NCBI GenBank assembly: GCA_964016885.1
Contig: OZ024743.1
Location: 186,744,001-186,808,000, forward strand
Source of the DNA: Eledone cirrhosa
Lineage: Eukaryota
Length of the DNA stretch: 64,000 nt
Direction of reading: 5' to 3'
This document shows, piece after piece, positions 2,677 to 58,767 of the stretch. Positions within the stretch are counted from its first letter, which is position 1; every line of letters starts with the position of its first letter. The notes below the pieces were generated by a model. That model had not been told where the DNA came from. It worked only from the letters and a program-made list of their open reading frames with translations, and did not search any database. The position numbers and the translations under genes were made by a program.

Positions 2677-2868
2677 ACGCTATTCCGGGTTGAATCGGAG
2701 GTAACCACAGTAAGTAAGGTACTCAATACATAGCAGAGTATAAAAGTTTTAATATAGATGAGATTCTACAGGACTAGAACTGTTTCATTCATTAGAAATC
2801 ATCAGGAATCAGATTCCTGATGATTTCTAATGAATGAAACAGTTCTAGTCCTGTAGAATCTCATCTAT
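2677..2868. mobile_element. Small non-coding HHR element with a perfect fold-back
   Basis: Palindrome centred at 2811, flanked by TA/TG arrays. A diverged relative lies at 5540-5835. Confidence 0.8.
2812..2860 (+). ncRNA. Type I hammerhead ribozyme (mirror copy on - strand at 2762-2810)
   Basis: gattc-CTGATGA-tttctaatgaat-GAAACAG-ttctagtc-CTGTA-gaatc. Stem I gattc/gaatc, stem II ttc/gaa, stem III ACAG/CTGT, GUA cleavage triplet. Confidence 0.85.
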
Positions 2869-2980
2869 ATATATATATATATATATATATGTATTATATA
2901 TATATATATTATATATATTATATATATATATATATATATAGATATTATATATATATATATATATATATATAATATATATA

Positions 2981-3490
2981 TGTGTATAGTGGTAGCTATG
3001 GTGCTTCTGTAGGCGGTATATATATATATATATATATATATATATATATATATATATATATATATATATATATATATATATATATATTATCAAGAAAACA
3101 AAAAATCAGTGACGCATCTGGACTTAGTTTATTTCGTGTTACAAATGTTTCGCCGGCATGTAGCTCGAGACATGGTCCTTGTATGGATCTGGTTGATTCT
3201 ACTTCTGCGGGTTCTTTCAGACACGCCTGTTATGTTCGGAGCAAATTTTATCACTCAAATTTTAACAGACGTGTCTGAAAGAACCCGCAGAAGTGGAATC
3301 ACCCAGATCCATACAAGGACCATGACTCGAGCTACATGCCGGTGAAACATTTGTAACACGAAATAAACTAAGTCCAGATGCATCACTGATTTTTCGTTTT
3401 CTTGATAATATATACACTCTACTCTGATGAATATTGAGTGCTAATTTTGGCATACCGCCTACAGAAGCACCATAGCTACCACTATACACA
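2981..3490. mobile_element. Non-coding HHR element with inverted duplication
   Basis: 2981-3019 is the reverse complement of 3452-3490, and ~3085-3230 of ~3265-3410. Flanked by (TA)n. Confidence 0.85.
3270..3360 (+). ncRNA. Type I hammerhead, CUGAAAGA core variant with long stem II (mirror copy - strand 3135-3225)
   Basis: cgtgt-CTGAAAGA-acc...ggt-GAAAC-attt-GTA-acacg. Stem I is perfect, and the extra core A is present in both copies. Confidence 0.75.
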
Positions 3491-3894
3491 TATATATATT
3501 ATATATATATATATATATATATATATATATATATATATATAATATCTATATATATATATATATATATAATATATATAATATATATATATATAATACATAT
3601 ATAATATATATAATATATATGTATATATATATAATATATAAATATATATATATATCATCATCATCATCATCATCGTTTAACGTCTGTGTTCCACGCTTGC
3701 ATGGGTTTGGACGGTGTATATATATATATATATATATTATATATATATATATATTATATATATATATATATATATATATATAATATATATAATATGTATA
3801 TATAATATATATATATATTATATATATATATATATATATATATATATATATATATATATATATATATATATATATATATATATATATATATGTA

Positions 3895-54441: not shown

Positions 54442-54900
54442 CTAATAATAATGAAAAGGATGAAGTGTTAGATCTTCATTATGTTTATTGAGGTGTGACG
54501 CACGTTTTGCCAGCTTTTGTTTCCAGAGAAGGGACAAATTGATACAGATTAAGCTTTGAGCTGATCAATCGCAAAACATACGTCACACCTCAATAAACGT
54601 AATGAAGATCAAACACTTTTTCCTTTTCATGTGGATTGGCAGTATCGGTAGAGGGTCGGTCGCCATGCTTTGAAGCATAGAGTTACGGCCCTTGCCATTC
54701 TGAGTTCAAATCCCGCCAAGGTTAACTTTACCTTTCATCCTTATGGGGTTGATAAAATAAAGTACCAGCAATGCACTGGGTAATTGCTGGCCTTGTGCCA
54801 AAAGTAGAAACAATTATTATTAGTATTACACTCTCCTTATACCTACTAGAAAATATGCATCGAGTGCTCACTCTGGTGAACCTACAGGAACTGGACATTA
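54442..54900. mobile_element. Fold-back element with decayed HHR 3' halves; a family A SINE (54631-54815, +) is inserted in its right arm
   Basis: 54451-54510 is inverted to 54570-54630, and the arm resumes (tattattag) after the SINE. GCAAAAC..GTC-acacc occurs in both arms. Confidence 0.7.
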
Positions 54901-54911
54901 CAATCACTAAA

Positions 54912-56525
54912 TCATCATCATCATCATCATCGTTTAACGTCCATTTTCCACGCTAGCATGGGTCTGGACGGGAATTGTCCCACTTGAGGCAAGATTGGTT
55001 GTCTTGCACAGGACTGCCTGGTGGGTTTTCTATGGCTGGATGCCCTTCCTAACACCAACCACGTTTACAGTGTGGACTGGGAAGTTTTTACCGTGTTACC
55101 TACATGGCCACATTACAGCATGGACTGTGTGTTTTTTTGTCGTGACACCTACACGTCTGGCGGGTTTTCTACGGCTGGTTGCCCTTTCCAACACCAACCA
55201 CGTTTACAGTGCGTACTGGGAGGTTTTTACCGTGTTACTTACACGGCCAAATTACAGCGTGGACTGTGTGTTTTTTTGTCGTGACACCTACACGACTTCA
55301 TTTATTTCGGACTGGACATTGTGGTACCAACATAACCTTACATTGAAAGGGGTGGTGTGGATGGGGTGGGGGTAGTGGGACGAGAGTGTATTTTGTTAGA
55401 GGTGCCTACTGACTGTAGGTTTCGCTTTGTACTTAGACAAGGCGGGTCTTCTATATGACTGTGTAGATCTCGGTCCAGTGACATTGTCTTGGAGAGGTGT
55501 AAGTGTGTGAGGTCGGAATTTATCAAGTCGTCACAGGTTTTTCTGGGTCTGCCTACTCCGTGGCTACCGTCTATTTTTATCGCCCTGCACTTTTTTATAC
55601 AGCTGTCATCTTTCATGCTCATTACGTGACCTTACCAACGTAGTCTTCTCTCGAGTAAACAACATCTGATCCCTCTTATTCCTAATTTCTTCCTTAGTTT
55701 GTTTATGCTTTGCCGTTCACGTATATTACTATTACACATCCAGTGGAGCATGCAAGCTTCATTTCTCTCCAGTCTGCATATATCCTCTGCACACAATGCC
55801 TAGCTCTCAGTGCCATGTAACATTGCTGTTCATATGCAGGCATCATACAGTCTGCCTTTCATTTTTAGAGAGAACCCTTTAGCGGCCAATAGAGGTATAA
55901 GCTCTCTGAACTTTTTCCATCCCATTCTGACTCTAGCTACTGTACTTTCAGAGCACCCTCCCCCACTGCTGATTTTGTCACCCAGGTAACAGAAGCTGTC
56001 CACTATTTCTATAGAACCATCTGTGCAATGGAATGAGCTAGTATTTTTGGGGCACTTGTACCAGAGCACCGGCCACATATAAAATCTATATTCTTAGTTA
56101 GCTTACCTGTGATCCCACTACATCTTTTATGCACCCATACTTTGCATTTGGGACATAAAATAGAGTTTCTGCCTACTCCTTTCCTACACACTGAGCATGG
56201 CCATTTCCCAGATGGGACCGGTGCCCTATTTTCCTTCCTACAAACTAGAACTTTAGCCTTAGACAAGTTAACTTTAAGGCCTTTTGATTCTAGGCCATGC
56301 TTCCATGTTTGGAATTTCTTCTCTATTTCAGCCATTGATTCAGCTATGAGCGTTAGATCATCTGCATATAGGAGTTCCGATGGGTAGCCAGTCTTGAACT
56401 CCTCTGTTATAGCCTGAAGAGCAATAATAAATAGTGGGGGCTTAAGGACGGAGCCCTGATGAACACCAACTTTTACGCTAAACTCTTCACTATATTTGTT
56501 GTTAATTCTAACCTTGCTGACTGTT
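54912..56525 (-). mobile_element. RTE-clade LINE, 5'-truncated, RT with Cys-rich PHD-like insert, (GAT)n tail
   Basis: GVHQGSVL, LYADDL (~56350-56372), GLKVNLSK, CSVC..C..C..WVHKRC..CGRC, FCYLG, KGRLYDAC, GRPRKT. Frameshifted. Confidence 0.92.
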
Positions 56526-58767
56526 TCTTTATATATATATAAATATATATATATATATATATATATACAAATATATATATATATAATCTGGTATCTGCGG
56601 TTATTAAAGTGGAATGGTTGAACAAAAGTAAGAGGGAAGCCAGTTTTGTATTTCTATTTGACAAATTCAAAGGTTCTTATCTAAAATGGTTGCTACCCAA
56701 TTTTGATTTTTCACGCAGTATATATGATCCATTAGGTAACTATCTTTCCTATTAGCTTTTGAAACATTTTGTGTCAAAAACATACTGGTACATCTTTTAT
56801 CTCACACATCTTGTAAAGTTATGTTGGTACCACAGAACATACAGTCCACACTAAAGAGGTTGTGTAGGAGACATGACAAAAAGCACCCGGTTCACGCTGT
56901 AAAGCGGTCGTGTAGGAGACATGGTATAAAGCCTCCCAGTCCACACTGTAAATATGGTTGGTTTTAGGAAGAGCATCCAGCCATAGAAAACCTGCCAGAT
57001 ACAGTCCTATACGAGCAAGACACGATTACATGATCAATCTTGCCTCAAGTGGGACAATTCACGTCTAACCCATGCTAGCATGGAAGATAGATGTTAAAAG
57101 ATGATGATGATATGTGTGTGTGTGTGTGTGTGTAGGTTAATATGGTGCCTCTATGACTTCCTCAGGATTTATGGTCCATTCCATAAGTATATATAGTTAA
57201 CTCACAAAATGTTTTCTTTAATTATGGTTGAGTGCTCCATATTTGTGATGTCATGTTGCTATATTAAGCATTACCACCAACCTCAGCCAGTCAGCCATAA
57301 TTTTAATATCAAATATGGTATATTTGCATGGCTTGACATATTGTAAATATACACATTAATATTATCATTTCCTGTCTATATCAGATCTTTTCTCTTTTTT
57401 ATACAATCTTGCATATTTTTTTAGGAATTTCTAAAACCAAACAAACAAGATGAATCCAATAATTGGAAAACCAGCAGGTGACTCATGGTTTGGATTTTTT
57501 CAATATCACAGAAATGGGATTCCATTTGTCTTCATATCACTTTCATATCCCTAGTTAGGTTAACATGAAGTCAACTAAAACATTTCCACATGCACTATTT
57601 AGACTATGACCCCTTTGAAAAATTTTCTGCTTCCATCATCAGATTTGCCATTGGTTTATTTCCTAGTCTTTCCCTCAACAAGGATTCTTTGAAAACATTT
57701 ATTTTATAATGAAACTTTGCCTTGACTTTTGTTTTCCTCATACTTGTTGATTTACATATAGAAAAGTAGTAAACTTTTCACAACATGTTTGCTGAGGGAT
57801 TAATATCAATGGTATGAAGCTACATCCTTTCAGATTCATTAATGCCATGGTCATAATTTAGAAAAAAATAATTTGAGAGAATTTGTGTTACATGCAAGAA
57901 AATGAACAAGTGTAAAATAAATACAATGATAAGGTGACACTAAAAGTGGCTACAGAGGATGGAAACAAAATAGGACAAGTAGAAAACTACTTATACCTAG
58001 AATAAAGAACAAGTTCAAAAAGGTAAAACCCCAAAAAGAAATAAAAAAGGAAGAGATTAATGTTTGGATGAGCCTCATTCATGCAACACAACAATACTAT
58101 ATAAAGCTAATCTGCCTCAAAAGAAAACCCCTAAACCAATGCATATCATCAGCAGTCACAAGGTACCCAGCTACACTGTAAAGTGGTCATGCAGGTACCA
58201 TGACAAAAAACACCCAGTACACAAAGTAAACGTAATTGGTGTTAGGAAGGGCATCCAGCTGTAGAAACCTAGCCAAAACCAATTCTATATGAGCAAGACA
58301 TGGTCATCAAATCTGGCTTATCCCACAATGGGACAACTCATCTAACCCATACTAATGTCCAAAAATGGACGTTAAATGGTGGTGGTGGTGGTGGTGATGA
58401 TAATGATGATGAACATGGACCTAACAATAGAAATAGAGATAAAACTGGCAGTAAGTGAATATAAAATGGAATAATCATTGCTTGATATGTCAAACAAATT
58501 GATAAGAGAATGGATGAAGGTTGATGATATGCTTATCATTGCAGAAGCAGAAAATAGATGAGGGCAGGATGCATCATCAGAATGAAAAGCAAGTTTTCAC
58601 TGAATAGTAGCTAACATCATCATCATCAATACCATTTAATGTCTACTTTTCATATTTGCATGGGTTAGACGAGATGTCATGTCTTGAGGCTAGACAAGTC
58701 AGGTGACCATGTCTTGGTCATATATTCCATGTTCAGCTTGGTTTCTACAGCTGGATATTCTTCTTAA

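Follow-up and report, generated by a model that had tools for sequence, protein, structure and literature searches.

In Eledone cirrhosa and other hosts, Penelope-like elements (PLEs) of the Hydra clade were found to carry two copies of a small bulged hairpin with the consensus RCTC-[variable stem]-loop-[stem']-TH-GAGY-RCT. Inserted copies stop a few bases short of one hairpin or the other, which makes it likely that the pair marks the start of reverse transcription; the hairpin is probably an RNA signal bound by the reverse transcriptase (RT) of the element, setting both cDNA starts just 5' of each hairpin. What was observed in the copies described below is the motif with its pairing, the arrangement of the hairpins in tandem, and where both ends lie; no description of such a hairpin pair was found in the PLE literature searched. 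The window analyzed comprised 64,000 nucleotides (contig OZ024743.1, positions 186,744,001 to 186,808,000), for which a preliminary description had listed 11 examples of a RCTC..GAGY stem, mostly 3' of hammerhead ribozymes.

Across the window, the bare RCTC..GAGY pattern was not enriched (53 matches versus 43.6 ± 6.5 in local shuffles). At fold-back insertion ends, picked without use of the motif in a 1.66-Mb sample of the genome, it was present in 59 of 117 cases (shuffle mean, 1.4; maximum, 6), with counts of 0 to 6 in upstream windows and 130/7,988 in random background. The pattern was also found at 31 of the 75 ends (0.8 expected from shuffles) and in 11 of the 37 clusters (0.55 expected) that had no member in the window. 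Enrichment over upstream and shuffled controls was obtained when the pattern was anchored to insertion ends. All 11 strings quoted there are present at their positions. Seven (2719 on the minus strand, 3415, 5440, 6533, 21141, 21209, and 54829) fit the full motif, that at 5574 (minus strand) is decayed, and that at 57199 is probably so; two were wrong, since the GACTC at 30251 (minus strand) belongs to a different family without GAGY, where it falls within or beside stem I of the hammerhead, and the ACTC at 53591 (minus strand) sits within a palindrome arm, mismatched to GAGC. The location 3' of the ribozyme was upheld (43 to 70 nt from the hammerhead GAAA to the stem where a core was found, with one case of 92 nt), but the short 3' end of the insertions was a tighter anchor than the ribozyme (median, 5 nt; 50/57 within 0 to 9 nt). 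The hairpins of the window, numbered in the sense direction of the element, and the features around them are as follows.

2721..2739, minus strand: hairpin 1, ACTC-TGC..GTA-TT-GAGT, part of the tail of the fold-back 2752-2870
2777..2805, minus strand: type I hammerhead core, upstream of the preceding hairpin 1 (pattern match only)
3275..3355, plus strand: hammerhead with long stem II, in the fold-back 3081-3414 (stems by eye)
3416..3439, plus strand: hairpin 1, 1 nt past the short end, the long end lying near 3490
3933..3978, minus strand: hairpin 1 of the 21210 family, missed in the preliminary description
5441..5464, plus strand: hairpin 1, ACTC-TAC..GTA-TT-GAGT, after the fold-back 5330-5435; long end near 5512
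5576..5595, minus strand: decayed hairpin 1, GAAT for GAGT (GAGT in relatives)
6534..6554, plus strand: hairpin 1, GCTC-TGT..ACA-TA-GAGC, after the fold-back 6385-6530
6843..6920, minus strand: hairpin 1 with a long insert, also missed, in the inverted tail-bearing arm of the Hydra element
7154..9290, plus strand: Hydra-clade RT-GIY-YIG ORF, 5' truncated and broken (clade motifs as in PMC8557442)
9945..10195, plus strand: 3' pLTR of the 7154..9290 element with a hammerhead at 10020-10131; terminates with the short end and retains no hairpin
10245..14340, plus strand: control, a full-length PLE from a different clade; two 3' ends, tail of 41 to 48 nt
21142..21162, plus strand: hairpin 1 of a decayed copy
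21210..21255, plus strand: hairpin 1, GCTC-TA..TA-TC-GAGC
54830..54865, plus strand: hairpin 1 with a short upper stem
57200..57233, plus strand: probable decayed hairpin 1 with the first upper pair disrupted (the 1.66-Mb sample contains no relative)

Seven of 10 families of this genome had a hairpin 2 past the long end. In the 5441 family, 305 genome matches have it a few nucleotides past the long end, followed by a Hydra ORF; it was likewise present behind the long end in 157 matches of a family related to the 21142 copy. Four genome copies of the 3415 family run on into hairpin 2 and a start codon, and one copy of the 21210 family runs on into hairpin 2. Master copies of the 2719 family have a Hydra ORF and lack a canonical hairpin 2, of which only a remnant resembling the 3' half was seen. 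Searches for hairpin 2 were empty in two further families, among them the 6534 family, for which no master copy bearing it was found. The bulge of the hairpin at 6843..6920 is decayed in this copy and reads TT in relatives. No RCTC/TH-GAGY hairpin was found in the control PLE; a stem spanning the long end of its family, drawn by eye, was absent from the RNAfold optimum.

What had been taken for a plain stem of 4 to 5 bp turned out to be a bulged hairpin with an upper stem. A 2-nt 3' bulge was the sole geometry giving such an upper stem (13/18 clusters versus 2.6 in the null; maximum, 8), and 119 sites near microsatellites had this bulge, versus 12 to 50 for six other geometries, with T first in the bulge at 108 of the 119. 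The reported covariation of ACTC/GAGT with GCTC/GAGC was confirmed, the 18 clusters comprising nine ACTC/GAGT, eight GCTC/GAGC, one GCTC/GAGT, and no ACTC/GAGC combinations. At Hydra loci of other hosts, T came first in the bulge in 74 of 77 hairpins, the first upper pair was formed in 71 of 77, and this pair underwent seven joint T-A/C-G switches on an RT tree of 48 loci (median identity, 51%). Loop length varied freely, from 8 to 90 nt; together with the compensatory changes in the upper stem, this indicates a folded single strand. In one count, 13/70 ACTC/GAGC mismatches were regular expression artifacts in which an ACTC further upstream had been caught, so that the 77-hairpin count and the 48-locus tree are the cleaner figures. 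The 3' RCT is unpaired and conserved in 27 to 29 of 29 cases, and AG-Y-R-CT forms a degenerate palindrome. In RNAfold predictions with sequence context, no more than 4 of the 10 copies from the window reached p > 0.9 for the core stem, and the G-U versus A-C asymmetry (13 versus 15 and 11 versus 5) does not fix the folding strand. No Rfam covariance model matched at the hairpins (E ≤ 5), the matches obtained being microsatellite or palindrome artifacts, and the 5' arms of the hairpin were not aligned by MAFFT.

The families had been called otherwise unrelated, which they are not, because those followed to an ORF are assigned by their motifs to the Hydra clade. According to Craig et al. 2021 (PMC8557442), RWK replaces GxKF/Y and DKG becomes DKT in this clade, the C-terminal GIY-YIG domain has a CxCX5C linker and CxxC/CxH motifs without CCHH, and the elements, generally <3 kb with a single ORF, have a hammerhead in the pLTR and (TA)n targets. 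Three of our families have RWK-type motifs (RVRWR, RLRWR, and RIRWR), and SDKT was read in families of this genome; across 40 proteins, R37 (34/40) and W38 (36/40) were conserved in the N terminus, as were D (39/40), K (39/40), and T (31/40) or S (8/40) of the DKT motif. The C terminus of the L212 protein is a GIY-YIG domain with CNCRNKANC, CRLC, and CNH, without CCHH and with one Cys inside the GIY-YIG core. A hammerhead in the pLTR and (TA)n insertion were present as well, the hammerhead cores being found by pattern, with no hammerhead match in an Rfam search. The ORF measures 817 aa, and one family repeats at ~3.54 kb. An initial label, Neptune, was dropped since the protein motifs match Hydra. 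The best fold matches of a Hydra protein model were TERTs; PLEs are the sister group of telomerase RT. The consensus sequences of Craig et al. themselves contain the hairpins, whereas the accessible text of that paper describes no hairpin and attributes the tail to endonuclease resolution (PMC8557442).

The order in full-length leaders was hammerhead, hairpin 1, hairpin 2, and ATG, with 55 to 74 nt from hairpin 1 to hairpin 2 in other-host loci. Hairpin 2 ended mostly 15 to 45 nt upstream of the ATG, and its upper stem was weaker than that of hairpin 1. Among 40 full leaders in other hosts, 27 had two hairpins, 9 had one, and 4 had none, and the 86 other-host loci gave 82 sense versus 18 antisense matches. 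In the curated Hydra-1_Ajap sequence, which begins 2 nt ahead of hairpin 1, both hairpins precede the ATG; those of Hydra-1_Crog are diverged. Other PLE clades in the E. cirrhosa genome were without the hairpin, and the viral contigs searched held no relative. The notion of a second conserved cis-element is backed by position, covariation, and conservation across hosts.

The short 3' end lay ~5 nt before hairpin 1 and the long end ~3 to 6 nt before hairpin 2 where it was found (4 to 13 nt in the 3415 family); therefore, the tail equals the hairpin spacing. In other hosts, 13 of 24 pLTR 3' ends were located between −4 and +6 nt relative to a hairpin, against an expectation of 1.75, in a test run without a hairpin filter and with the microsatellite alignments of L304 set aside; the other 11 were away from any detected hairpin (short contigs; 4 in leaders without a detected hairpin). 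The distance from GAGY to the long end ranged from ~27 to 108 nt among the families of this genome. Short ends also occurred on ORF-bearing long arms (window position 10195 and L006, L016, and L026 of the control family).

In the mechanism that we propose, a read-through RNA would hold the pLTR, hairpin 1, and hairpin 2. The protein would bind a hairpin, the U bulge probably being contacted by a conserved basic helix with RW[K/R] in the N-terminal part of the protein, and the GIY-YIG domain would nick (TA)n, whose 3' OH would pair with A/U-rich bases ahead of the hairpin. A start at hairpin 1 would give the short end, and a start at hairpin 2 would copy hairpin 1 and the spacer into the tail. 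If both kinds of start occurred once, on the two opposite strands of the target, and were joined head to head, the fold-backs filling the window would result. A counterpoint to the rule for hairpin 2 is the 2719 family, which retains a long end though its masters are without a canonical hairpin 2.

The motif could instead act as DNA (a duplex site, cruciform, or single-stranded hairpin), with the GIY-YIG or zinc-linker part cutting a few bases 5' of it and trimming the ends of intermediates. This would agree with the endonuclease resolution of the tail put forward in PMC8557442, with the need of the D. virilis endonuclease for the tail in plasmid DNA (as cited in PMC11167929), and with the degenerate palindrome and its conserved RCT; we nevertheless consider it unlikely, as the compensatory upper-stem changes and free loops indicate a folded single strand and the RT starts of Poseidon PAc in vitro match genomic ends (PMC11167929). 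The same genomic ends would be predicted if the hairpins directed RNA cleavage or 3' trimming just 5' of each and the RT started at the new RNA 3' ends, which seems quite improbable. Other enzymes of target-primed reverse transcription do start at RNA 3' ends, but a cut 5' of the hairpin would separate the recognition signal from the template. RNA-seq read ends of PAc coincide with its start sites, yet PAc initiates internally on unprocessed RNA (PMC11167929).

Were only hairpin 1 bound, a fixed distance (a dimer serving as a ruler) would set the long end and hairpin 2 would be used otherwise, e.g., for translational control at the ATG. The long end of the 2719 family and the proximity of the weaker hairpin 2 to the ATG would fit this; the end, however, keeps its few nucleotides from hairpin 2, where this was found, while its distance from GAGY varies from ~27 to 108 nt, and we hold a ruler to be very unlikely. 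We give almost no credence to the stem as a stop, at which a cDNA that folds back and self-primes on antisense RNA would halt to give the short arm: it would account for one short and one long end, and self-priming has been proposed for PLE palindromes (PMC3846280), but the short end is found on ORF-bearing long arms too and the long end likewise sits before a hairpin.

The proposed setting of start sites by an RNA signal has a counterpart in Poseidon PAc (Frangieh et al. 2024, PMC11167929), in which two RT starts match the tail ends in vitro and need downstream RNA, and for which a binding motif was proposed in the region downstream of the hammerhead. There, too, two starts 3' of the hammerhead bound the tail, and both target strands are cut and extended; the PAc starts differ in lying inside one AC-rich stem-loop within the ORF, of other sequence (PMC11167929, figure letters). 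In the leader of the Hydra elements, a conserved bulged hairpin follows directly 3' of each of the two putative starts, and the tail measures ~55 to 75 nt; neither end falls within an AC-rich initiation stem-loop, each being located 5' of a separate hairpin, and both hairpins precede the ATG. In L2 LINEs/SINEs, the R2 3' UTR, and HBV epsilon, recruiting or positioning the RT is the task of a structured RNA signal next to the template. Those signals are single and, in LINEs, are copied into the insert, whereas the Hydra hairpin would be left out of the cDNA at the bound site. In telomerase, the template boundary element is a helix located 5' of the template, where it halts copying. For both ends of the Hydra elements, the hairpin lies instead on the 3' side of the region copied, where copying would start. 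This, with the short ends on ORF-bearing long arms (e.g., 10195), does not fit a template boundary in the telomerase sense; a template-boundary signal was one of the two roles suggested in the preliminary description.

These results bear on RNA recognition by PLEs, of which, to our knowledge, only one has been studied in vitro, on their optional tail, and on the inverted copy in their inserts. Since a small conserved hairpin predicts both ends within a few bases across the clade, the questions of tail and recognition are reduced to simple mutant assays. Fold-back repeats without an ORF, which are numerous in genomes of this kind, can be classified with the hairpin as a marker, and RT-based insertion tools gain in it a candidate for a minimal signal.

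More tentatively, and with some doubt, an RT dimer might sit on two TAR-like arginine sandwich hairpins of one RNA and prime two cDNAs at once, one per hairpin, each from a different strand of a (TA)n target cut on both strands. This would fit the fold-backs of the 1.66-Mb sample, with 57 short-plus-long versus 1 long-plus-long and no recognized short-plus-short combinations. If so, a two-site RNP would have left its direct print in the tail of PLEs and in their inverted pLTR, joined head to head, and the hairpin would be a portable start signal of roughly 25 nt for target-primed insertion. The TAR of HIV-2 has a 2-nt UU bulge. The arginine sandwich motif was described for HIV TAR and 7SK SL1 (Pham et al. 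2018, PMC6189040), and the bulge of the Hydra hairpin has its register, i.e., a paired base, a bulged U, and then G-A-G in a helix, with counterparts in TAR (A22, U23, G26, A27-U38, and G28-C37) and 7SK (A39-U40U41 with U40:A43-U66). The apical loop, in contrast, closes the other side of the bulge in the Hydra hairpin; the likeness would be convergence, not homology, with a putative U:A-U triple and putative arginine binding. The sequence demanded by the sandwich, namely a pyrimidine in the bulge after a Watson-Crick pair, a G to receive the arginine, and an A-U pair two positions further, was found in the other-host hairpins, with T first in the bulge in 74/77 and the preceding pair formed in 71/77, GAG/CTC having been the search anchor.

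The tandem bulged hairpins (hairpin 1 and hairpin 2) between the hammerhead and the ATG of Hydra-clade Penelope-like elements (PLEs) are a real, clade-wide cis-element, apparently undescribed before. In full, the motif runs RCTC-stem-loop-stem'-TH-GAGY and has an unpaired RCT behind it. The window (G000:C4:186744001-186808000) lies in a 3.0-Gb genome with abundant (TA)n and holds many short palindromes in which one arm leads to a microsatellite and the other to a tail of 50 to 130 nt; that PLEs can have their 5' part copied in inverted orientation, and that one of their ends may carry a tail, was already known (PMC8557442 and PMC3846280). 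PLE coding sequences in the window were as follows:

7154-9290, PLE ORF, broken
10245-14340, full-length PLE with RT and GIY-YIG matches

The motifs of the 7154 family (families are named by window coordinate) agree with the Hydra clade (RW[K/R], DKT, and CxCX5C, without CCHH), and Neptune, an initial label, was dropped. The 2719, 3415, and 5440 families, held to be unrelated in the preliminary description, also lead to Hydra-clade ORFs. A fragment at 56009-56653 (minus strand) with RT and PHD-finger matches is probably a LINE remnant. Nested fold-backs with a SINE-like insert at 53540-54630 had a tail that contains a TA-GAGC 3' half without an intact 5' arm. The distal tail of the 3081-3490 element recurs in inverted orientation at 2974-3020, with (TA)n between this copy and the palindrome and the hairpin absent.

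All 11 strings listed in the preliminary description as RCTC...GAGY stems downstream of the hammerhead were present; 7 were true copies, 2 were decayed, and 2 had been misassigned. Across the whole window the bare pattern was not enriched (53 versus 43.6 ± 6.5). We also collected, blind to the motif, 117 fold-back ends from the window plus an additional 1.6 Mb of the genome. Here the pattern was enriched at short ends (the insertion 3' end just before hairpin 1, the long end being that just before hairpin 2), with 59 of the 117 showing a pattern start at −8 to +15 nt from this end, versus 1.4 in shuffles (maximum, 6) and 0 to 6 in upstream windows; the remaining 58 include decayed copies and other repeat types. 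Enrichment extended beyond the window families (11 of 37 clusters without a window member versus 0.55; maximum, 5).

The proposed covariation of the outer pair held in 18 clusters (ACTC/GAGT in 9, GCTC/GAGC in 8, a wobble in 1, and a mismatch in 0). An upper stem of at least 2 pairs arose solely with a 2-nt 3'-side bulge (13 of 18 clusters versus 2.6 under the null). In a scan near microsatellites that left bulge size and side open, this geometry gave 119 sites versus 12 to 50 for six others; the sites fell into 42 clusters, of which 31 had TT, TC, or TA as the bulge, and T came first in 108 of the 119. The stems are weak; of 10 window copies folded with RNAfold, 4 favored the core. Leaders of the 7154 family (L196, L207, and L212) had loop inserts of 70 to 90 nt in both hairpins, with core and bulge kept; one insert resembles an AT microsatellite.

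Among 86 Hydra-related loci from other hosts (metagenome and bin contigs), hairpin matches numbered 82 in sense versus 18 in antisense. The strict pattern occurred twice in 27 of 40 full leaders, once in 9, and not at all in 4; some leaders short of two strict hairpins hold short-loop or outer-pair variants (e.g., TCTC/GAGA). Hairpin 1 lay 39 to 67 nt from the hammerhead GAAA in 28 of 29, hairpin 2 followed at 55 to 74 nt (35 pairs), and the ATG lay mostly 15 to 45 nt from the 3' edge of hairpin 2. When CTC and GAG-NN-CT were the sole fixed letters, 74 of 77 hairpins had a bulge beginning with T, and 71 of 77 formed the pair that follows. This pair above the bulge (T-A in 25, C-G in 22, and T-T in 1) was mapped on an RT tree built from 48 loci: its 5' base requires 7 changes, its 3' base 8, and both bases taken together 8, which makes 7 of the switches simultaneous on both sides. 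The hairpin was present in curated Hydra-1_Ajap, Hydra-2_Ajap, and Hydra-2_Amil and in diverged form in Hydra-1_Crog, and no clear one was seen in Hydra-1_Obim. Contigs binned as bacterial genomes (L298-L306) contain Hydra PLEs and are probably animal host DNA.

Hairpin 1 began a median of 5 nt from the short end (0 to 9 nt in 50 of 57, TA microhomology blurring the position). Hairpin 2, predicted behind the long end, was found there in 7 of 10 own families: 5440 (305 matches; control, 0), relatives of 21141 (157 matches), 3415 (4 matches), 7154, 21210, one further family, and one more with 259 matches. It was not found in 3 of 10; master copies of the 2719 family, which carry a Hydra ORF, show a remnant alone, and the other two gave no master copy. 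The 2719 family has a long end despite lacking an intact hairpin 2. Because hairpin 2 sits behind the long end, the tail consists of hairpin 1 and the spacer, and the stem observed in the preliminary description is hairpin 1 as retained by long-end copies. Among 24 pLTR ends in other hosts, 13 lay within −4 to +6 nt of a hairpin, against an expectation of 1.75, and 11 lay away from any detected hairpin. The 5440 family also occurs as retrozyme-like tandem units of 299 bp and 257 bp with both hairpins and in 3.54-kb tandem arrays (G000:C2:356030062-356031903; L309-L310, L312), and the 2719 tail unit occurs as an 83-bp tandem repeat at L317 (G000:C4:369999855-370000007).

For PAc, a Poseidon element and the one PLE assayed in vitro, PMC11167929 reports that both RT starts coincide with tail ends, that RNA cleavage is not needed, and that initiation depends on RNA lying 3' of the starts. 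The Hydra RT would probably bind a hairpin and start copying just 5' of it. The bulge has the same register as the arginine sandwich motif of 7SK and TAR (PMC6189040). An Arg-Trp helix is conserved in the clade, at residues 18-44 of a structural model that is of high confidence and has TERTs as best fold matches; we speculate that this helix recognizes the bulge. A copying stop that sets the short end is argued against by the ORF-bearing arm, which may carry a short or a long end, and two starts are therefore favored. Hairpin-bearing fold-backs combined one short and one long end in 57 cases, and by slightly different criteria 1 among 12 symmetric fold-backs was long-long; none of the 12 matched short ends of hairpin-bearing families. 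A second long-long fold-back (L030) lay outside the counted sample. One short and one long end per fold-back suggests a possible RT dimer on the two hairpins. The motif may instead have a role at the DNA level, since its conserved 3' RCT forms a degenerate palindrome; sequence comparison assigns the hairpin fold to neither strand.

The Hydra hairpin is a putative new variant among RT-recognition hairpins. No description of it was seen in the literature passages searched, which included PMC11167929, PMC8557442, PMC4209133, bioRxiv 10.64898/2026.07.22.740005, PMC6189040, PMC7583470, PMC5175362, and PMC3846280.

The RCTC/TH-GAGY hairpin was absent from three hammerhead-bearing types, namely, the 10245 element, the 30251 family, and a Poseidon-like family (read by eye). 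The element at 10245-14340 and outside loci L001-L030 represent a non-Hydra PLE (GxKF and DKG) with two sharp 3' ends ~45 nt apart, putatively Nematis-like as judged by its linker. The tail of an abundant minimal-hammerhead family (30200-30330, minus strand) has TCAAGYGTTAAAC, which resembles the CAAGTGAAC that the 10245 element carries in its own tail (14308-14340, plus strand); the two are perhaps the start signal of another clade.
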